DNA of 64,000 nucleotides from positions 32,001 through 96,000 of the IMG/VR virus record IMGVR_UViG_3300042465_006864; one strand, 5' to 3'. Origin of the DNA: a virus. The translations under genes and the position numbers were made by a program. The notes beneath the pieces are model-generated. The model saw nothing but the letters and a program-made list of their open reading frames with translations, ran no database searches and was not told the origin of the DNA. Shown in pieces: positions 5,697 to 55,975 of the stretch. Within the stretch, counting starts at the first letter, position 1. Each line of letters opens with the position of its first letter.

Positions 5697-6062
5697 ATGA
5701 AACTTGACGATTACATTTTACAATTTGCTAAACAAGATGAATGCACTTTAGGCGAATCTCTTTTGGAATATGCTTTTCCTAGCGAGGGCAGAGGTTGTTA
5801 TTCGAACTTCAAACTGCGCGATTCATTCGTTCCTTTTCCCGAAGGTTTTGATAAATACGCCCCTATGTTGCTAGGTGAACATTTATACATCGAAGAATGC
5901 ACCGACGAAGAAAGAGACAGTATTCATTGTTTTATTGATTCAGAAACAAATCTCAAAGTCGCATGGGCTTGGGATGGTGATGGTCATCTGATTTTTGAAA
6001 GCGATGACTTTTGTATTGAAAACCCCGATATTAAAAAATCCTCAAGATGGCGCAAAGCATGA
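5697..6062 (+). CDS. hypothetical protein
   Basis: ORF directly after a TTGACA-17-TACATT promoter. Confidence 0.7.
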   Translation: MKLDDYILQFAKQDECTLGESLLEYAFPSEGRGCYSNFKLRDSFVPFPEGFDKYAPMLLGEHLYIEECTDEERDSIHCFIDSETNLKVAWAWDGDGHLIFESDDFCIENPDIKKSSRWRKA

Positions 6063-9117: not shown

Positions 9118-9591
9118 ATGGAATTCATTAAAGAACACGTAAACAAAGACTGGCTACCAGTCGTCGAAAAATTTCCTAAGATTTTCTTAGAACCATCAGA
9201 GTATGTTATTGATATTTGGGAAAAATACTACAAAGATTTCGTCAAGAAAGAAGATATGGTGAATCTACGCTATGGTTTTGAACATGGTATCGGTTGGAAA
9301 GATATTGTAATCGGCTTTTGTGAAGATTTACAGAAGCTTGCTGAAAAAGCTGCCGCAGAAGGTCACACCTTTCAATACAAAGGATGCATTATTAAAGAAA
9401 AATTTGGCAAATTCACTCCCCAAGGTGATTTGGAAAAAAGTGAGGGTGCATGGGAAATCTATCGCGATGAATATTATGGTATTTGTCGCAAATGGGAAGA
9501 AAAATCCTTGACAGTCTGCGAAGTCTGTGGTAAAGATGGTGAGTTGCGCAGCACAGGATGGTGGAAAACGCGCTGCGATGAACATAACTAA
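9118..9591 (+). CDS. conserved phage protein with C-terminal Zn-ribbon
   Basis: GW...IKEKFG...CEVCG...TRCDEH. Confidence 0.7.
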   Translation: MEFIKEHVNKDWLPVVEKFPKIFLEPSEYVIDIWEKYYKDFVKKEDMVNLRYGFEHGIGWKDIVIGFCEDLQKLAEKAAAEGHTFQYKGCIIKEKFGKFTPQGDLEKSEGAWEIYRDEYYGICRKWEEKSLTVCEVCGKDGELRSTGWWKTRCDEHN

Positions 9592-9595
9592 TAAC

Positions 9596-10024
9596 ATGAG
9601 AGAATTAAAATTCCGCATCTGGGACAGACAAGCAAAAGCATGGGCTGAGAACGATTGCTCGCTGCATTGTTTCAGTAATTGGCAGATTGATCCATTCACT
9701 GGCAAACTGACTGATTTTGTTGGTGCAATTGACGGTGATCGTGAAACGCGCTATAATGCAAATCCTGCTCCCGATTATTATTTTCGTGGCAGTGAGATTG
9801 TGAATGAGCCGAGATATGTTCTTGTTCAATTTACTGGCATGAAAGACAAAAATGGAGTAGAGATTTATGAGGGAGACTTTATTTGTTTTAATAGAACAGA
9901 AGGTCTTTATAGTGATCAAAAGTATCCAATTGTTGCGGCAACTCATCCTTATGTTCAAAACCGTTCTCATTTAGGCGAAGTAATTGGCAACAGCTTTGAA
10001 AACCCTGAACTATTAGAAGCATGA
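9596..10024 (+). CDS. YopX family protein
   Basis: MRELKFRIWD...QFTGMKDKNGVEIYEGD...EVIGNSFENPELL. Confidence 0.9.
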   Translation: MRELKFRIWDRQAKAWAENDCSLHCFSNWQIDPFTGKLTDFVGAIDGDRETRYNANPAPDYYFRGSEIVNEPRYVLVQFTGMKDKNGVEIYEGDFICFNRTEGLYSDQKYPIVAATHPYVQNRSHLGEVIGNSFENPELLEA

Positions 10025-10374
10025 ACAGAGAAATTAAATTTAGAGCTTGGCGCGAAAATAAAATGCATTATAACATTACAACCGCTCATTATGAGCATAA
10101 TGCAATGAGCGGAAGCGGGGGAGATTTGTGGGATTTTGCAGAATGGATGAAATGGAGCAAAGTCATGCAATACACTGGTCTTAAAGACAAGAATGGTGTA
10201 GAGATTTACGAAGGTGATATTCTCAAACACAATCATAAAGTCCAACAGGTTGAATCTAAGTTAGATTGGAACTGCGGATGTTGCGGATTTGTTTATGGAT
10301 ATAACATTGAAGATCCCAATGATATTGAAGTCATCGGCAACATCTTCGAGAACCCTGAACTTTTAAAACATTGA
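10021..10374 (+). CDS. YopX family protein
   Basis: REIKFRAW...QYTGLKDKNGVEIYEGDI...EVIGNIFENPELL. Confidence 0.9.
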   Translation: MNREIKFRAWRENKMHYNITTAHYEHNAMSGSGGDLWDFAEWMKWSKVMQYTGLKDKNGVEIYEGDILKHNHKVQQVESKLDWNCGCCGFVYGYNIEDPNDIEVIGNIFENPELLKH

Positions 10375-10799
10375 GAGAAATAAAATTCAGAATTTGGGAT
10401 AATCTAAAAAAAGAGTGGGTGACTAACAAATACATCTGGAGAATGAAAACCGATGTAAACGGTATCGGTGAAATTCATCCACATACATTCTATTGGAAGC
10501 AACATCCACATGGATTGAATTATCAACAATACACTGGTCTGAAAGACAAAAATGGGAAAGACATTTACGAGGGAGATATTGTAAACATTTTAAAAGAGAA
10601 TAAATGTTATCCTGTGAATTTCGGCAATTGTTATGCTTCTGCTGATGACAACTATTGCGGCACAGAGTGTTTTGGATACCATATAGACGGGCAAATTATG
10701 GGATCGCGTGCAAGAAATTGGGGAAATGGAGCATTAATCAGTGAAAATATGGAAGTCATCGGCAACATCTTCGAGAATAGTGAACTTTTAAAACAATGA
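10371..10799 (+). CDS. YopX family protein
   Basis: REIKFRIWD...QYTGLKDKNGKDIYEGDI...EVIGNIFENSELL (TTG start). Confidence 0.9.
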   Translation: MREIKFRIWDNLKKEWVTNKYIWRMKTDVNGIGEIHPHTFYWKQHPHGLNYQQYTGLKDKNGKDIYEGDIVNILKENKCYPVNFGNCYASADDNYCGTECFGYHIDGQIMGSRARNWGNGALISENMEVIGNIFENSELLKQ

Positions 10800-19385: not shown

Positions 19386-19766
19386 ATGACAATCACACAA
19401 CAACTTAAAGTAAAGGAATTCCCATTCATCATCAGAAATTCAAAAGGTCAAGAGGTTTACTGGGAGAACTCCGATGGATTTTGGGTAAAACGTGAATACG
19501 ATTCCAATGGTAATGAGATTTACTTCGAGAACTCTTATGGAAGTTGGGAGAAGCGTGAATACGATTCCGATAGTAATCGGATTTACTTCGAGAAATCTAA
19601 TGGATTTTGGGCAAAAAGTGAATATGATTCTAATGGTAAAGAGATTTACTGGGAGAATTCCGATAGAGAAATCATTGATAATCGTCCCAAGACAGAAATC
19701 CAAAAAGCCATTGAACTTCTCACGAAAGAAGGATTGATCGTAGATGGTAAGATTTTAAAAAACTAA
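19386..19766 (+). CDS. YD-like repeat protein, paralog 1
   Basis: Tandem ~20-aa units REYDSNGNEIYFENSYGSWE. Confidence 0.75.
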   Translation: MTITQQLKVKEFPFIIRNSKGQEVYWENSDGFWVKREYDSNGNEIYFENSYGSWEKREYDSDSNRIYFEKSNGFWAKSEYDSNGKEIYWENSDREIIDNRPKTEIQKAIELLTKEGLIVDGKILKN

Positions 19767-19785
19767 GATACAATCATAACATAAT

Positions 19786-20169
19786 ATGAAAACAATAGCA
19801 CAACAACTTAATGTAAAGGAATTCCCATTCATCATCAGAAATTCAAAAGGTCAAGAGATTTACTGGGAGAACTCAGATGGACGTTGGCATAAACGTGAAT
19901 ACGATTCCAAAGGTAATCAGATTTACTACGAGAACTCTTATGGAAGTTGGGAGAAGCGTGAATACGATTCTAAGGGTAATCAGATTTACTTCGAGAACTC
20001 TAATGGATACTGGGCAAAAAGTGAATACGATTCCAAAGGTAAAGATATTTACTACGAGAACTCTAATGGAACAGTCATTGATAATCGCCCGAAAACAGAA
20101 ATCCAAAAGGCAATCGAACTTTTGACAAAAGAAGGATTGCTGGTAGATGGAAAGATTTTAAAACAATAA
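19786..20169 (+). CDS. YD-like repeat protein, paralog 2
   Basis: Near-identical N- and C-termini to 19386..19766; REYDSKGNQIYYENS units. Confidence 0.75.
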   Translation: MKTIAQQLNVKEFPFIIRNSKGQEIYWENSDGRWHKREYDSKGNQIYYENSYGSWEKREYDSKGNQIYFENSNGYWAKSEYDSKGKDIYYENSNGTVIDNRPKTEIQKAIELLTKEGLLVDGKILKQ

Positions 20170-20177
20170 AAACAAGC

Positions 20178-20735
20178 ATGAAACTATTCTGGGACATTGA
20201 TGAAACGCTGATTCACTCTCGCGCTTACATTCACGAAAAATACAAACACACATTCATTGTTGATGTTTACGACGAACTCTACTATACTTGTGTAAGACCC
20301 TGCGCGAAACAAGTGATTGAATACAGCCGCGAAGTATTCGGGGCAGATAATGTATATATCCTCACCGCTGCCGCAGAGCTTTACGCTCAACGCATCAATA
20401 AACTAGCGAAATGGAACTTCCCCGAAGATCATATCATTGGGCGCGAAACAACTGAGCGTTACTGCATCAATATACCAAGCCTGTATGGTAGCGACACTTT
20501 CGTAAGCGAACATCCTTTGGCTAATAAAAACAACCTTTTAATTGATAATTTATTTCCGCCATTTAATCATGAAAAGACATCATTAATGTTGATTAATCAA
20601 AAAAATTACTTGACAGTCGAAGACTATATTGGTAATAATCTTGACGACGACATCTTCAGAGATAAAGTGAAACATTTTATGGATGATGCGCTGAACCGTT
20701 ACGCTGACAATTTAATAGAACAACAAAAACAATGA
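20178..20735 (+). CDS. HAD-superfamily (NIF/FCP1-like) phosphatase
   Basis: WDIDETLIHS (DxDxT), VRP and LLIDN motifs. Confidence 0.8.
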   Translation: MKLFWDIDETLIHSRAYIHEKYKHTFIVDVYDELYYTCVRPCAKQVIEYSREVFGADNVYILTAAAELYAQRINKLAKWNFPEDHIIGRETTERYCINIPSLYGSDTFVSEHPLANKNNLLIDNLFPPFNHEKTSLMLINQKNYLTVEDYIGNNLDDDIFRDKVKHFMDDALNRYADNLIEQQKQ

Positions 20736-21088
20736 AAATCGGAGACACAATAACATGCATAGACACTTGCTATGCGCAAGAACTTATAGATGGTGGTGAG
20801 TATCGTATTGTCGATATTAACGAACGTGGCAACCTTCAAATCCAAACGATTGAAGATTATCAAACTTTATCCTATTACTACGATCCTGATAGATTTGAAC
20901 TAATCGTTGATGACGAGACGACTATCTCTAATGAGATTGTAGTTGATTTTGGCGGCATCAAGATTAGGCTTTATGATGATCGTTCTGTTTTATTTGGTGG
21001 CTCAGTGCCAACTATCGGATGTTCCGATAAAGAGATTGATAACCTCATTCGCGCTCTTCTCGCTTTTCGCAACGGTGAAACTTATTAA
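20732..21088 (+). CDS. hypothetical protein
   Basis: ATGA overlap. Confidence 0.65.
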   Translation: MKIGDTITCIDTCYAQELIDGGEYRIVDINERGNLQIQTIEDYQTLSYYYDPDRFELIVDDETTISNEIVVDFGGIKIRLYDDRSVLFGGSVPTIGCSDKEIDNLIRALLAFRNGETY

Positions 21089-21108
21089 ACAATAAATAAA
21101 TAAATAAA

Positions 21109-21393
21109 ATGAATTATACAAACGAACAAATTAAAAAACCATCTCCTAATAGCAACATTAAAGACGTAATGGAAGAGTTGCATCACAACATTATGATAAA
21201 TCGAGAACTTATAGCTATTCTGGAAGACCGAACGCTTCCGATTCGCCTTGAGAGTCCGACAGTAGCTACAACAACTTCTGATAAACCGTACCCTCCTCTT
21301 TCCGCAATCGAAGCATCTATTTGGGATTATAAAGAAACAGTTCAGCGAAACAATAACGCGATAAATCACATTCTTGAAACTTTGCGACTTTAA
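21109..21393 (+). CDS. hypothetical protein
   Basis: Operon ORF. Confidence 0.6.
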   Translation: MNYTNEQIKKPSPNSNIKDVMEELHHNIMINRELIAILEDRTLPIRLESPTVATTTSDKPYPPLSAIEASIWDYKETVQRNNNAINHILETLRL

Positions 21394-21396
21394 TAC

Positions 21397-21675
21397 ATGA
21401 AATTACAAACAGTCGCAGAAGTAGCTGCCATTGAAGGCAGTTGGGACACAAAAGCTTTGCGTATGACAGATCACGCGCAAAAACTCGAAAGTAAATCTCT
21501 TTTGGCGTTGGCGACTCTCAACTTATTAGTGGATGCAGTTGAACAGGCTATTGAGTTTGGCGATTGGAAAGTTGATGGGCGTTGTGATCCTGATATGGTG
21601 CTATCGTGCGCAAGAGACTTACTATTTGACAATGGATATGAAAAAAGTCTTGACACGCTAGCACAAGAAGTGTAA
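21397..21675 (+). CDS. hypothetical protein
   Basis: Operon ORF. Confidence 0.65.
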   Translation: MKLQTVAEVAAIEGSWDTKALRMTDHAQKLESKSLLALATLNLLVDAVEQAIEFGDWKVDGRCDPDMVLSCARDLLFDNGYEKSLDTLAQEV

Positions 21676-21683
21676 TAATCTTC

Positions 21684-21975
21684 TGGCGCTGACATACCGC
21701 TTAGTATGTCCCTACACTCGCGTTCATTGCATTGAGGGCTAAGATGCACTCCCAGAGGGGTGCATTGACGAAGGCAGCACCAGACTAGGCATAGTTTAAG
21801 AGCCTTACGAACTTGAGCGACCTGAACAGTGGATGCGAGTGTGGGAAACCATAAAAGAACTAGCGCTAACATCAGATAAGCGTACTATGAGCTTACGAAG
21901 GCTAGCTTAAAAATTCGTGGCAAGTAAATGTAGGGAAATTGTCTGGTTGACTGTCGTGAACAGAGCGACTTAAAC
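21684..21975 (+). ncRNA. putative large structured ncRNA, family unknown
   Basis: ~300-nt intergenic region; 19-bp helix 21711-21729/21827-21845 with four G-U pairs; several other hairpins; starts 8 nt after a GTGTAA motif. Confidence 0.6.
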
Positions 21976-21987
21976 TTTCTAATAAAT

Positions 21988-23826
21988 ATGATTAAAAATA
22001 TATTAGTATATTCTTCCGTTGGAGACATTTGCACATTCTTTCCGATGTGGAAACACGATAAAATTCAATACGCTTTCAATTACTACGGCAACAATACAGA
22101 GCGAAAAGAGCATATTAAATCATGCTGCGACTACTTTAGCCACATAAAAGGCACGAAGTTTAATTTGTTTTCAAAATTATTTGGGACACTGCCTCTATTT
22201 GATTACTATGTATTGCTCGACGACGATCTTAATCTCACAGGCGCAGATATTATGCAAATGGTTGAGAAAATGGACGCTTTAGGCTACGGTGTAGGATCGC
22301 CATCACATTCTCCAGAGGGAAGCATGTCGTGGTCTATCATGAAGACTCAAGACAGCAGCGAATACCGAAGCGTCGATTTTGTTGAAATGACTGGCGTTAT
22401 TTTTAATCAACAAGAAATGAAAAGATTTTTGGATGCTTATACTCCTTACGCCGATCAAATGGTTGGTTTTGGCGTGGATTATATCATTCATAGCGTTTGC
22501 AATAAGCCGTTTGTTATTTTTGACAACGTATCAGTGGTAAATCCAACCAATGAACAAAAGGGAATCAAACAACAAGAAATAGAAACATATTTATCGGGGC
22601 AAAGTGATAGAGATATGTGGGAAAAAGTTCTTGCCGATCCTAACAATAGTTTTGTAGCTTATTCGCCGAAAACAATTAGCCTCAAAAAGAGAAAGACTGT
22701 CCCGAAAGTCAACATTGACAGCTTTTTAAAATCATTAAAAAAGAAAAAAGTACACGCCTTTCAATCTTTAGCGTCAGCTACTAAAAAGCGACTAGAGCAG
22801 CATGGATTGATTGTTGATTATATCAGTAACCAAAGCGGTCATCGCAAACCTGATTCTGATGTTTTAGTTATAGATTTCAATACAGCGTCTTTTGGAAAAG
22901 ATTGCGAGAGCGTTAATCAACACAAATACAAATACAAAAAAATTCTTTTAATAGGTTTTTTGGTTACGGATTACAACGGTCATGATTATAGTGATGACTT
23001 GGCTAAATTACCCCAACACACAATAGTCGAGGCGTTGGATGATTATAGCGATAGATTTTATAGCAAATTTCTATTAGGTCAATTTGTTGGCACACCAGAT
23101 GATGTCACGAATAAAGTCAGTGTTGTTTGCGCTTGCATGAATCGTAACGATGTTTTGCGAGTCAACATAACTTCTTGGCTGCATTTTTCGGAAGTTGGAG
23201 AGATTGTTGTTGTTGATTGGAGCAGCGATCAGCCTTTAGACTATCTAACAACACTAGACCCAAGAATCAAAGTAATAAGAGTAGACGGTCAAAAGCAATT
23301 TAATATATCACAGGCATTTAACTTAGCGATAGATAATGCAAGCTTAGAATACGTATTGAAATTAGACACTGATTACTTTTTAAATCCGTATTATAATTTT
23401 TTTAAACATCATCCAATGAATTCTGAGGTATTTTACGCAGGAAATTGGAATATCGACTCAGAGCTTCCCGCACCTATATTTCAACATTTGGCTGGATTGT
23501 GCTACGTTCAGAGAGATGTGCTAGCGTCAATCAACGGATATAACGAACATTTTTCGGGCTATGGTTATGATGATGCTGATTTACGCATTCGATTACAAAG
23601 TGTTCATGTTGGTAAATTGCTTCCAATTAAATACGATTACAGTATTATGCACATACCTCACGCAAGCTCGCTGAGAATAGCTCACTACATCGACAGTCAA
23701 TACAACGTATCAAACAACAAAGAAACTGCAAAAAACATGGGCATCGCTCCAAACAGAGTAAGATCGTGGACGATAAAAAATACACAAAACCCCAATTATT
23801 TTCTTGCACACGATCCAACTCTGTGA
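21988..23826 (+). CDS. multidomain glycosyltransferase (GT-A folds)
   Basis: N-terminal YYVLLDDDL...FVEMTG domain; C-terminal GT2/GT7-like SVVCACMNR...VVVDWSS...KLDTD...NGYNEHFSGYGYDDADL. Confidence 0.8.
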   Translation: MIKNILVYSSVGDICTFFPMWKHDKIQYAFNYYGNNTERKEHIKSCCDYFSHIKGTKFNLFSKLFGTLPLFDYYVLLDDDLNLTGADIMQMVEKMDALGYGVGSPSHSPEGSMSWSIMKTQDSSEYRSVDFVEMTGVIFNQQEMKRFLDAYTPYADQMVGFGVDYIIHSVCNKPFVIFDNVSVVNPTNEQKGIKQQEIETYLSGQSDRDMWEKVLADPNNSFVAYSPKTISLKKRKTVPKVNIDSFLKSLKKKKVHAFQSLASATKKRLEQHGLIVDYISNQSGHRKPDSDVLVIDFNTASFGKDCESVNQHKYKYKKILLIGFLVTDYNGHDYSDDLAKLPQHTIVEALDDYSDRFYSKFLLGQFVGTPDDVTNKVSVVCACMNRNDVLRVNITSWLHFSEVGEIVVVDWSSDQPLDYLTTLDPRIKVIRVDGQKQFNISQAFNLAIDNASLEYVLKLDTDYFLNPYYNFFKHHPMNSEVFYAGNWNIDSELPAPIFQHLAGLCYVQRDVLASINGYNEHFSGYGYDDADLRIRLQSVHVGKLLPIKYDYSIMHIPHASSLRIAHYIDSQYNVSNNKETAKNMGIAPNRVRSWTIKNTQNPNYFLAHDPTL

Positions 23827-23855
23827 TATAGTCAGCACACGAACATATAAACACA

Positions 23856-24146
23856 ATGATTAAAAACATTACAGCAGAAGAAATTAAAACAACATACCGC
23901 GACAATCATGGATTCGCATTTGTTTCGGCGCAACCAGTTTCTGACGATGCAATCTATCGACTGGCAGATTCATTGATTCAATTCAACATTGCGACTAAAC
24001 ATCCTATTGTCGTGACACGTTATCAACAAGGCGTGGTTTTTATTTACGATGATTTCGACGCTCCTAAGTTTTTCGCTAAGGCGCAATTTGCAGAGCAGGT
24101 GCTTGGTATTTGCAAAATAGTTCCATTTTTGGAGTATGTGAAGTAA
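23856..24146 (+). CDS. hypothetical protein
   Basis: ORF. Confidence 0.65.
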   Translation: MIKNITAEEIKTTYRDNHGFAFVSAQPVSDDAIYRLADSLIQFNIATKHPIVVTRYQQGVVFIYDDFDAPKFFAKAQFAEQVLGICKIVPFLEYVK

Positions 24147-24153
24147 CAATTTT

Positions 24154-24308
24154 GAGCGTGTGGCGGAATTAGACGCAGTGGGTTCGACTCCCACCTCCTC
24201 CATTCTTGGAGAGACGAGAAACGGACGAGACTAACAGGTGAGAGTCCAGTGCTTCCATTTCGGGGGCAGCGTTAGTCATGCAGGTAATCAATCCTGCCAC
24301 GCTCGCCA
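24154..24308 (+). ncRNA. tRNA-like RNA with ~100-nt insert in place of the anticodon arm
   Basis: Acceptor GAGCGTG/CACGCTC-GCCA, Leu-like D region, outer T-like stem GCAGG/CCTGC, second internal T-arm GTGGG-TTCGACT-CCCAC. Confidence 0.6.
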
Positions 24309-24339
24309 ATTAAAAATAATAAAAACAATAAAAAAACAA

Positions 24340-24528
24340 ATGAAGTCAATTGATCTTGCGATGGCGTTTATCTCTTTAGCTCTAATAGCTATATTTGGGA
24401 CTTGTATGGCAATGTTTGGAGCTGATGAAGTGGCAAGTCTACGAAAGCAAGCTATAGAACGTGGACATGCTGAATACGTGGTAGACTCAAATGGAAAAAT
24501 AACTTGGCAATGGAAGGATGCAAAATGA
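24340..24528 (+). CDS. small membrane protein
   Basis: Start MKSIDL; TM segment then KQAIERGHAEY. Confidence 0.65.
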   Translation: MKSIDLAMAFISLALIAIFGTCMAMFGADEVASLRKQAIERGHAEYVVDSNGKITWQWKDAK

Positions 24529-24746
24529 TGAATGTTAGTGTAATTGATGTTTTTTATAGCATTGTGATTCTTGCGCTATTTATTATAATTTTTAGGAACG
24601 CAATAGATAAAACGCATCAACTTTCGCATGATTTCAAAAAATTAACAGAGCTTGAAAAAGAATTAGAGACGCGAGATCTGAATCAAGCTGAGCGTGAGGA
24701 ATTAAAAAAAGAACTGGCCGCATTTGGCATAAAAAGCTATGACTGA
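24525..24746 (+). CDS. small membrane protein
   Basis: ATGA overlap; N-terminal TM plus coiled coil. Confidence 0.6.
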   Translation: MMNVSVIDVFYSIVILALFIIIFRNAIDKTHQLSHDFKKLTELEKELETRDLNQAEREELKKELAAFGIKSYD

Positions 24747-25107
24747 CCTAGAAATCAACGCCGCAATTGCAGAATCATTAGGCTACATGGACATTTACCG
24801 TTGTGGACAAAGTGGTAAACGCACTGAGCAGGGACTGTTGCACGGCAAACTGCTTTGCGGCACTCTGGATCAGCCGTCAATAAACTATGGGCGCGAGTAT
24901 GAGTTTATCAAACGATACACGCATTGTCTCAACGCGATGCACGAAGCTATGCTTGCGCACCCTCGCAAAGACCTGCTAAGAAAATTCCTATACTTGGAAG
25001 TATTAGAAGACCCAACAAACACAACAAACGAACCAGCATGGGCAACAGCTAAACAGTGGGCAACGGCTTACGTAAAATCATTAGGAAAGTGGAGCTACAA
25101 TGACTAA
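24739..25107 (+). CDS. hypothetical phage protein
   Basis: MTDLEINAAIAE...YTHCLNAMHEA...ATAKQWATAY. Confidence 0.7.
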   Translation: MTDLEINAAIAESLGYMDIYRCGQSGKRTEQGLLHGKLLCGTLDQPSINYGREYEFIKRYTHCLNAMHEAMLAHPRKDLLRKFLYLEVLEDPTNTTNEPAWATAKQWATAYVKSLGKWSYND

Positions 25108-54256: not shown

Positions 54257-55399
54257 ATGAAAATTACCCTTAAAAGAACTCCTGAACAAATCGAGCTTGT
54301 GAAAGCTATGGCTTCGAAAAATCGCGCTATCGCGACCGAAGCTCAAGTTGCACTCGCTGAGTTCATTGGTCCTGTGTTGGCTGAAGTGATCAACAACGCT
54401 CCTACGTTGAGCAACTTGTTCACCACTCTGCAATTCAATGCCGATGACAATCCTAGCATTCCGCTTGACCTCTATTATGATGTTAACGCTGAAGACTATA
54501 TCGAAGTTTACAGCCAAAGCGCTGCTGGCGGTCTTCCTCAGAACCAAGTACTTCCTACTGTTTCTGAAATGAAGATCCACACCTACACTCTTGACTCTGC
54601 ATTGAGCTTTGATAAGCGCTATGCTGCTAAGAGCCGCTTGGATGTAATCAGCAAAACCTTCACTCGCCTCGCTCAAGAAATTCTTCTGAAGCAAGAGAAG
54701 ACTTCGGCAAACCTATTGCTTGGCGCTCTCGCCAACGCTCAAACCAACGGCAAGAAACACGTTCAACGTGCCAACACTAACGGTCGTTTCCTCTTGGCTG
54801 ACTTGAACGAACTGTTCACTCTTGCTAAGCGTATCAACACCTCTTGGCTTGGTGGCACTCCAGATGCTCGTCAAGGTCGTGGTCTTACAGACATCATCGT
54901 GTCTCCTGAAGTTGTTCAAGAGCTTCGCGCTATGGCTTACAATCCTATCAATACCAAAGGTTCACCTGCTGGTGGCACTCCTACTGATGGTATCGCTGCT
55001 CCTGATGACATGAGAACTGCTATCTATAACTCCGCAGGTATTCCTGAGTTTTATGGTGTAGCCATCATGGAAATCAATGAGCTTGGTCGTGGTCAACGCT
55101 TCAACAGCATCTTCGACACCGTTGCTGGTTCGACTGCCTTCACTAACGCTGCTGGAGGCAACTCCGCTGCATTTGATGGCGCTGCTGAAGAGATCATCAT
55201 TGGTCTTGATCGTGGTCGTGAGTCTCTGATCCGTGCTGTTGCTGTGGATTCGGAAAATGGTTCGGAGTTCTCTCTGACTGCCGATGACCAATACAGCGTT
55301 CGTCAGAAGAAAATCGGCTACTTCGGCTCGATGGAAGAAGGTCGCATGGTGCTTGACACCCGCGCTCTGGTTGGCAAGATCGTTTCGGGTCTCGCCTAA
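54257..55399 (+). CDS. major capsid protein
   Basis: 380 aa, position in the head module, biased codon usage, strong hairpins downstream. Confidence 0.8.
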   Translation: MKITLKRTPEQIELVKAMASKNRAIATEAQVALAEFIGPVLAEVINNAPTLSNLFTTLQFNADDNPSIPLDLYYDVNAEDYIEVYSQSAAGGLPQNQVLPTVSEMKIHTYTLDSALSFDKRYAAKSRLDVISKTFTRLAQEILLKQEKTSANLLLGALANAQTNGKKHVQRANTNGRFLLADLNELFTLAKRINTSWLGGTPDARQGRGLTDIIVSPEVVQELRAMAYNPINTKGSPAGGTPTDGIAAPDDMRTAIYNSAGIPEFYGVAIMEINELGRGQRFNSIFDTVAGSTAFTNAAGGNSAAFDGAAEEIIIGLDRGRESLIRAVAVDSENGSEFSLTADDQYSVRQKKIGYFGSMEEGRMVLDTRALVGKIVSGLA

Positions 55400-55406
55400 T
55401 AGATTC

Positions 55407-55486
55407 AGGCTGGGGGGTTCGCCTCCCAGCTTTCAAAAAACCCACCACGCCTCTCAACGATGCGAACCAGGGTGGGTATTTTTTTG
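55407..55486 (+). terminator. hairpins/terminator after the MCP gene
   Basis: GCTGGGGGG-TTCG-CCTCCCAGC-TTT, then ACCCACC...GGTGGGT with a T run. Confidence 0.6.
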
Positions 55487-55519: not shown

Positions 55520-55975
55520 ATGGCTAGAAAAAAACAAATAGTAGAAGAAACCAATGGAATGATTCAAGAACCTGTATCTGAATCAATTGCCAGTGTCCCC
55601 AAAAGAACGCTCATTCAAGAGATTGAAGAAATGAAAGCATCTGGCTTAGTTGGCACTCCAGATTTTACTGATAAAATGCGCCAGTTGGAAGTTATGTTGG
55701 GCGTGAGTCAAATCAGTCCATTCGGCACAAATGAGCTGGAAATCTTTGAACAAAATCTCGCGGAAATGTCTCTTTCTGATATGCAAAAACTTGCACTCAA
55801 GATTGGCACAAATCCATATCACGAAAAGCCTGTATTGAAGAAGAGTCTCATTAGAGAGTTTACTGCTTACACACGCAATAGTCGCCGCAATATTATGCCT
55901 ACTGCTGTACAGTCGTTTGTTATCGACCACAACAATCCCAAGCATCAAGAATTATTGAAGCTACTCAATAACTAA
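55520..55975 (+). CDS. hypothetical protein
   Basis: ORF after the MCP gene. Confidence 0.65.
   Translation: MARKKQIVEETNGMIQEPVSESIASVPKRTLIQEIEEMKASGLVGTPDFTDKMRQLEVMLGVSQISPFGTNELEIFEQNLAEMSLSDMQKLALKIGTNPYHEKPVLKKSLIREFTAYTRNSRRNIMPTAVQSFVIDHNNPKHQELLKLLNN

Follow-up and report, generated by a model that had tools for sequence, protein, structure and literature searches.

The RNase III signals of the T7 early genes (R1.1 type) and the processing stalks of ribosomal RNA (rRNA) are irregular, intercistronic hairpins with a helix of about two turns and an asymmetric inner loop. A modular build is seen in bacterial Y RNAs and YrlA, which are bound by Ro60 and join a conserved stem, carrying a protein-binding irregularity, to a variable module, and also in the msr-msd RNA of retrons, where inverted repeats surround a structured RNA and the long stem tolerates replacement of its tip. 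Here we describe an RNA element, the module, that shares traits with each of these and lies at positions 21687-21845 (+ strand) of a 64,000-nucleotide (nt) stretch of phage DNA (the window; bases 32001-96000 of IMG/VR record IMGVR_UViG_3300042465_006864). A further point of comparison is provided by the put RNAs of phage HK022, which, as described in PMC9378689, are about 70 nt long and consist of two stem-loops arranged as a V. They attach to the beta' zinc-binding domain, and their place is immediately after PL or some 270 nt beyond PR. The source record of the window is a complete virus of 133,831 bases with direct terminal repeats, and the runs holding the stretch are mostly lake and other fresh-water metagenomes.

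The segment 21687-21845 is a copy of an uncatalogued structured-RNA family in aquatic tailed-phage genomes: a conserved, strand-specific, non-coding fold that travels between phages as a unit, within gene runs, and is almost the only DNA shared by these otherwise unalignable phages. It occupies the 5′ half of a 312-nt intergenic gap (21676-21987), bordered by the end of a 92-amino-acid open reading frame (ORF) at 21675 and the start of a gene for a 612-amino-acid GT2-type glycosyltransferase at 21988, with a run of + strand genes on both sides. The whole gap folds at -100.4 kcal/mol on the + strand (z -4.38, with none of 100 shuffles as good) compared to z -0.70 for the - strand. This signal resides wholly in the 5′ half: 21684-21849 gave z -6.25 on the + strand vs. 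-1.82 on the - strand, while 21846-21987 folded at shuffle level (z +0.40; 127 of 200 shuffles equal or better). An earlier reading of the sequence alone (hereafter the sequence-only reading) had proposed about 300 nt of structured RNA; by these values, structure is limited to some 160 nt and stops short of the 3′ part of that proposal.

Two stems named in the sequence-only reading stand at the core of the module. GACATAC/GTATGTC, at 21691-97/21704-10 as predicted, and the 19-bp helix CCTACACTCGCGTTCATTG/CAGTGGATGCGAGTGTGGG, which includes four G-U pairs, both form in the minimum-free-energy fold and show compensatory changes in homologues. We refer to them as H1 and H2; H2 abuts H1 without a linker. 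The proposed RNA-level selection on the + strand was also supported, by the strand-specific z scores and by G-U pairs that alternate with C-G and U-A in homologues. No ORF is conserved across the module among 13 members, and a 133-amino-acid antisense ORF (21471-21872) was rejected as a gene, its relatives not keeping it.

Covariation also supports the fold. One relative (L002, 93% identical) was found via the glycosyltransferase protein; its gap has the same flanks, the long helix with compensated differences and a wholly different interior. Homologues were gathered with exact patterns from the conserved core. The module was present in 18 of 19 viral stretches matching the 19-mer core (L110 being without it) and in 12 of 56 metagenome stretches, the other 44 being chance or coding matches, but in none of 26 bacterial and archaeal genome stretches with the same 19-mer (best covariance-model score 17.9 bits). 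A covariance model (R1) built from 8 copies, with 156 positions and 32 pairs, scored most sense copies at 97-150 bits and five that are divergent at 39-82 bits, vs. 11-25 bits for the antisense of the same places. When 19 distinct copies from viral and metagenome contigs were fitted to R1, standard pairs filled 97.3% of 560 cells (31-50% with slid partners) and 15 of the 32 pairs were changed on both sides, in 53 cells (2-5 pairs with slid partners). None of 500 shuffles reached the observed covariation values. RNAalifold, run on a plain MAFFT alignment of 8 copies, recovered the same helices, with compensated changes at 9 of 36 pairs. All mismatches of the H2 repeat are G-T on the gene strand, and the alternation of G-U positions with C-G and U-A determines the strand and favours a single strand that folds.

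The family has a common anatomy, in which a hairpin of 5-7 bp is followed by a helix of 10-20 bp, an inner loop and a closing helix that bears an apical domain of 21-115 nt; the whole module measures 105-198 nt. H2 is 18-20 bp long in 16 of the 19 copies and 10-12 bp long in L021, L062 and L105. The inner loop has the consensus 5′ CAWUGAGGGC / 3′ UGAGCGACCUGAW, the same in 18 of the 19 copies, and contains one covarying pair (U21732-A21826), with 14 rows having U-A and 5 having A-U. Because the search pattern included the 3′ strand of the loop, the invariance of that strand among the copies found is partly built in; the 5′ strand lay outside the search pattern, yet is equally constant. Constancy of this kind in the sequence implies a very conserved putative binding partner. 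A kissing contact between the bulge AGCG and CGCU of either the H1 loop or the 5′ tail was rejected because it shows no covariation, the bulge being constant while loop and tail vary; by our reckoning, the 20-bp helix would also set these partners too far apart within one molecule. A canonical kink-turn was likewise discarded: with the inner loop read by eye in both orientations, the positions of the G-A pairs relative to the bulge misfit the consensus.

The distribution of the module points to its transfer as a unit. Among the 36 pairs of nine lineages compared with blastn, 18 have the module arms in common and only 5 match anywhere beyond the module; four of these matches measure 28-74 nt and the fifth 785 nt (at 72%). 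Flanking ORFs are unlike between lineages, and a distant-mode blastn search with window positions 21397-22300 found no similar DNA in GenBank phages. The module always lies between genes and on the gene strand, sharing the orientation of the flanking ORFs at all 10 loci examined. It starts about 10 nt after the upstream stop codon in L016, and in L105 and L107 a start codon, or the ribosome-binding site of one, follows its end at 9-13 nt. In L004, L005, L013 and L064, the promoter, the module and the 3′ segment are kept next to a different upstream gene; the glycosyltransferase gene (21988-23826 in the window) is absent, and the RNA thus stands directly before the homologue of the next gene, ORF 23856. 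A tRNA-Met precedes the module by about 77 nt in L009-L012, where the gene that follows was read as thyX from its ORF start, without a family scan; across the lineages other than the window's, what comes after the module is thyX, a tRNA or unrelated small ORFs. L025 and L048 each have two units in tandem, with unlike apical domains, and in L048 there is also an insertion of 90 nt, on either side of which 16 nt of the hairpin are directly repeated. One sense copy each was found in the three whole records searched (the phage's own genome, G001 and G002). No target-site duplication was seen in the flanking sequences, which were not searched systematically, and neither neighbour-gene scans nor locus contexts showed a transposase or recombinase beside the module. 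Of the tRNAs next to the module, that of L016 (1720-1792, - strand), 6 nt downstream, scored 43 bits in Rfam and was missed by ARAGORN, and that of L009 is at 2037-2112, with its counterpart in L010 at a similar distance upstream.

No catalogued family tested here accounts for the element. At gathering scores, Rfam 15 found 7 tRNAs and an abiF motif (at 55441) in the window, 8 matches in all and none in 21676-21987; with E up to 10, this region gave only SraG (15.4 bits, cut-off 50) and CLRN1-AS1 (12.6 bits, cut-off 48), and 10 homologue loci gave tRNAs only. With its strong covariation and no Rfam 15 family, the element bears out the suggestion of a novel phage non-coding RNA. A full-text literature search with two 15-nt core strings found no paper, and 11-nt strings matched unrelated papers only. 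A published catalogue (PMC10690425) lists 10,006 predicted structured-RNA candidates from virus contigs and concerns, by its text, the same kind of object and data, namely intergenic motifs of uncultured phages with covariation support. The text seen of that paper, as distinct from its supplementary tables, which lay outside the comparison, holds no description of the motif, and the motif may stand undescribed in the catalogue.

In contrast to its arms, the tip of the module is highly variable. We counted 16 distinct apical domains, ranging from 21 nt (L016) and 23 nt (L107) through 74 nt in the window to 115 nt (L002), and alignments showed no apical sequence shared between lineages. Even L009 and L010, which are 95% identical over 4.6 kb, have unrelated apical domains. 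Only 2 of the 16 fold clearly better than shuffles, those of the window (z -4.31) and L009 (z -3.61); the other 14 range from z -1.54 to +0.88, with a mean of -0.73 over all 16. The closing helix beneath them is better kept, its second and third pairs being held in 15/15 and 14/15 distinct copies, respectively (58% and 41% in cross-copy controls). The ATGCACTCC/GGGGTGCAT stem of the sequence-only reading is real in the window, but confined to the apical domain of this phage. The window's apical domain has no match of more than 11 nt in its own phage genome. Its use as an antisense guide was considered and rejected: in five bacterial genomes, which had been chosen for the 19-mer and whose best matches all cover it, the other matches were 15-26 nt long, had E values of at least 0.29 and fell in no recurring place. 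The idea that the module as such mimics rRNA was also dropped, the L016 copy having no match in 5,426 E. coli genomes.

Sequences resembling rRNA were seen at two relatives. In L104, directly after the module (about 5917-5949, - strand), and therefore neither within it nor apical, lie 33 nt resembling the hairpin of the GTPase-associated centre of E. coli 23S rRNA (about 1054-1086), with 21 nt identical (E 9e-7 in a small search) and a match in the 23S gene of every one of 5,426 E. coli genomes; a phage RNA may here be carrying a mimic of rRNA. Rfam 15 had no match in L104 5400-6250 with E up to 5. In the first tandem unit of L025 (325-492, - strand), 14 apical nt are identical to 16S rRNA 1258-1271 of E. 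coli, a weak match (E 0.012). This unit also shows, by eye, a stem-loop resembling a tRNA T-arm, and its inner loop is a variant of that of the family.

The 3′ segment of the gap behaves differently from the module. Five variants agree in it at 96-97%, compared with about 90% in their coding flanks, and they show 4-6 differences, none of them compensatory. Exact-pattern scans from the segment found the window's own lineage only, plus chance matches in L006, L007 and L008, and it is absent after the module in L009-L012, L015, L016, L040, L047, L100, L104, L105 and L107. The pairings that had been proposed to involve this segment fared poorly. The TAAGC/GCTTA stem loses a pair (T21894G) in 4/4 other variants, and so does the alternative pairing TCCCTACA/TGTAGGGA, where TGTAGGGA reads TGTAGGAA in all four. 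TGGCGCT/AGCGCTA keeps 7, 7, 5, 6 and 6 of its 7 pairs in the five variants with both sites, without a compensatory change, and conservation of its 5′ half extends to copies that have no 3′ partner. The long-range pseudoknot ACCAGAC/GTCTGGT cannot be conserved, since ACCAGAC lies within the non-conserved apical domain. Also within the segment are a palindrome of 8 bp, TAGCGCTA, and, at 21947-21976, a weak promoter-like site.

A promoter-like site upstream of the module ties with one other for the best of 17 in 20000-25000, a number close to that in shuffles (mean of 15.0 sites). It is kept in L002, L004 and L013, and the upstream gene of L004 is different; the 5′ end given by the sequence-only reading is therefore reasonable, with a start at about 21685-87 being plausible. 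The label of late promoter is unsupported; this is an ordinary sigma-70-type consensus site that nothing marks as late. The gap 21676-21987 contains no terminator-like site and no evident sequestration of a ribosome site. Four RNA libraries yielded six short contigs on 20700-23000, none covering 21687-21843. Two of them, from different studies, reach into the gap, over 21844-21916 and 21846-21951, and begin or are joined there at the 3′ foot of H2 (21844 and 21846), which is a weak hint of an RNA end. One of the two is chimeric and the other runs into unlike sequence after 21951. These contigs prove neither expression nor silence, and such libraries can carry DNA. The features of the locus are collected in the table.

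Features of the module locus and their support (positions in the window).
Feature	Position	Strand	Support
Sigma-70-type promoter-like site	21650-21679	+	TTGACA, 18-nt spacer, AATAAT, TG before the -10; 11/12 consensus matches
5′ tail, CGCU	21687-21690	+	CGCU in 14/17 rows reaching there; the rest CGAU, CGAC, CGUC
Hairpin H1: GACAUAC, loop CGCUUA, GUAUGUC	21691-21710	+	Fold; 6/7 pairs changed on both sides, 97.3% of cells pair
H2, 5′ strand	21711-21729	+	Fold; H2 has 20 pairs, 9 changed on both sides, 96.9% of cells pair
Inner loop, 5′ side, CAUUGAGGGC	21730-21739	+	Near-invariant in 18/19 rows
Apical variable domain, 74 nt	21740-21813	+	Window-specific hairpin AUGCACUCC/GGGGUGCAU; short closing helix
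Inner loop, 3′ side, UGAGCGACCUGAA	21814-21826	+	Identical in 18/19 rows except for the covarying last base
H2, 3′ strand	21827-21845	+	Fold and covariation
3′ segment (module B)	21846-21987	+	Reaches the glycosyltransferase start codon; sequence kept in the window's own lineage only

We favour, with a probability of roughly 0.35, a role as a processing and stability module of polycistronic early transcripts that is cut by a host endonuclease. The transcript would start from the promoter upstream, with the module as the first 160 nt or so of an untranslated leader that continues into the downstream genes. The invariant loop on its long double helix would be the docking site for a conserved host or phage factor, and a host endonuclease of the RNase III or RNase E type would cut at or beside the helix, separating upstream from downstream messages and freeing a compact, stable hairpin RNA. 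The apical domain would be a tolerated position, swapped by recombination between the conserved arms. This picture is consistent with an operon element, given the co-orientation at all loci, the lack of a terminator and the tight spacing to stop or start codons in L016, L105 and L107. The helix, 19 bp in the window, has the length of about 20 bp, or two turns, expected for RNase III in 16 of 19 copies and therefore fits a double-strand nuclease, and the weak hint of an RNA end at the 3′ foot of H2 points the same way. The finding that only two apical domains fold well fits a tolerated position better than a uniformly selected fold.

The closest parallel to such a processing module is with the T7 signals and the rRNA stalks, which are likewise irregular, intercistronic and co-oriented hairpins with a helix of about two turns and an asymmetric loop, without a terminator; the likeness to the T7 signals extends to the place in the phage early transcript. 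The module differs from both in having a loop whose sequence is invariant across unrelated phages, unrelated apical domains of 21-115 nt, an extra 5′ hairpin and three copies with a helix of 10-12 bp, and it is known here from its sequence. Several points weigh against a processing role. Cleavage, partner and transcript end are predicted, and the evidence from RNA libraries consists of a few short contigs, one of them chimeric. The helices of L021, L062 and L105 are short for RNase III. No RNase III gene was found in the complete genome of the phage, so that the enzyme assumed is that of a host. The near-identical sequence of the helix in unrelated phages exceeds the need of a pure processing stem. 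Picking homologues by exact core patterns makes part of the invariance a matter of construction. Lastly, the total replacement of the apical domain between L009 and L010 could also be diversifying selection, and therefore a sign of function in trans, and the tandem units and adjoining tRNA genes would suit a stable-RNA gene as well.

These last observations lead to a different account, possible but tentative, in which the module is a stable small RNA acting in trans. Hairpin, helix and loop would form a handle for loading onto a conserved host or phage factor or for protection, and the apical domain, a decoy, mimic or aptamer, would be under diversifying selection, for example against host RNA-targeting defences. 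Besides the 16 distinct apical domains and their exchange between near-identical genomes, the tandem units, the tRNA genes close to the module in L016, L009 and L010, the window lineage's own promoter and a G+C content of 0.53, vs. 0.386 for the genome, would all suit such an RNA, as would the passage of the L104 RNA into the 23S hairpin copy and, weakly, the 16S identity in L025. A trans-acting RNA is harder to reconcile with the shuffle-level folding of most apical domains, with the lack of matches of the window's apical domain in its own genome and of recurring ones in the five bacterial genomes, and with the position of the L104 piece outside the module; neither a terminator or defined 3′ end nor, in the four RNA libraries, an abundant discrete RNA was found. 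The Y RNAs and YrlA resemble the module in their conserved irregular stem and variable module, and some relatives of the module have tRNA-like or rRNA-like pieces nearby. In the predicted window transcript, unlike in a Y RNA, the stem is not formed by the two ends of the RNA. No TROVE/Ro60 protein (PF05731) was matched in the phage and no Y RNA in Rfam, although the host could encode a Ro60. Scans of 10 neighbouring ORFs with Pfam and PHROGs, and of 62 further window ORFs with Pfam, gave no RNA-binding candidate, 66 ORFs outside the window being left out. A bolder version, and a doubtful one, is that of a display scaffold: a horizontally traded, nuclease-resistant handle would carry rapidly exchanged cargo that imitates rRNA hairpins or parts of tRNA, and so would serve as a decoy for the host's RNA-targeting defences or RNA-binding factors, or would titrate them. 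The hints to it are the apical turnover, the tandem cargo units, the neighbouring tRNA genes and the 23S hairpin copy of L104. If true, it would be an RNA counterpart of hypervariable anti-defence protein loci.

The remaining explanations place the function in the nascent transcript, in the DNA or in the gene downstream. The stem-loops could act as put RNAs do, staying on RNA polymerase and promoting read-through of pauses and terminators in a long early operon. We consider this unlikely, although in the window two abutting stem-loops do start 8 nt after a consensus-like promoter that heads a run of + strand genes, much as put RNAs (PMC9378689) are two adjacent stem-loops near early phage promoters. 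Binding to a conserved RNA polymerase would explain the invariance across unrelated phages, and the lack of a conserved partner gene would follow from an RNA that acts in cis and needs no protein of the phage. Set beside the published description of put, not its sequence, the module is far larger (105-198 vs. about 70 nt) and has a 20-bp helix, but nothing comparable to the triplex of put stem I. It also occurs right after stop codons, with no room for a promoter of its own in L016, and in tandem copies, which would not be expected. Less probable still is an element working as DNA, such as a hairpin of single-stranded DNA serving as a mobile-element end or as a recombination, replication or priming signal, with the interior as exchangeable cargo. 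The module is an inverted repeat around variable cargo, a build that recalls retron msr-msd RNA, and its standing as almost the only DNA common to unrelated phages resembles horizontal spread; the replication genes near it in L009 and L015 (read from ORF starts, without a family scan, as primase/helicase, DNA-polymerase and thyX) and the insertion with its direct repeat in L048 would fit as well. The G-T-only mismatches that alternate with C-G and U-A speak instead for a folded single strand, for which RNA is the simplest candidate because of the promoter and the co-orientation with genes. The complete genome contains no reverse transcriptase (PF00078; the control was positive in 3 of 14 genomes), Rfam shows no retron family match, and a miniature inverted-repeat mobile element was rejected, with a single sense copy per record and no adjoining transposase or flanking duplication seen (no systematic search having been made for the latter). 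The sequence-only reading had also offered a switchable leader for the glycosyltransferase. The module does lie directly upstream of the GT2 gene, and a conserved inner loop with variable peripheral stems is typical of many aptamers, but a riboswitch or other cis leader is now highly improbable, being largely refuted by the gene contexts: the RNA is kept in four relatives without the glycosyltransferase gene, and downstream genes are unrelated across lineages. Nor is there an expression platform, in the form of a terminator-like site, evident ribosome-site sequestration or a folded 3′ segment, and the proposed alternative pairing loses a pair in 4/4 relatives.

Orphan structured RNAs of uncultured phages have been predicted by the thousands, and another one alone would be routine. 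What is unusual here is the combination of arms shared by unalignable lake and sea phages, an invariant inner loop and a tip that is swapped between near-identical genomes, which makes the module a clean, testable example of modular RNA, its handle constant and its cargo exchangeable. If what the handle recruits is a core factor, be it a host nuclease, RNA polymerase or a different one, phages would have in the module a new device to control early transcripts; should the cargo matter, it would represent a new class of RNA-based host manipulation. The covariance model is a ready marker for this phage group, and the natural short versions of 105-106 nt (L016 and L107) are convenient for structure work.

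A number of minor features were seen around the module and elsewhere in the window. A second recurrent motif, noticed by eye, CCACACG(A/C)YUU followed by a hairpin of 5-7 bp with a CGUAA or CGUUA loop, lies downstream of the module in L015, L016, L040, L025 and L048; its copies in L015 and L016 correspond to the 28-nt blastn match, and a possible pseudoknot stands before it in L048, L025 and L040. The glycosyltransferase gene is an insertion relative to the four relatives that lack it (compared with L004 from 6458 onward). Its product and that of ORF 23856 both start with MIKNI, and the exchange point therefore seems to be the shared start region. Further upstream in the window, two tandem paralogous genes (19386-19766 and 19786-20169) encode proteins of 126 and 127 amino acids with internal YxENSxGxWxKxEYDS repeats and no Pfam family, and three consecutive YopX-family genes occupy 9536-10796. 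The abiF RNA motif found by Rfam (55441-55477; 42.1 bits vs. a cut-off of 37) sits between the + strand ORFs 54257-55399 and 55520-55975, downstream of a terminase-like gene.

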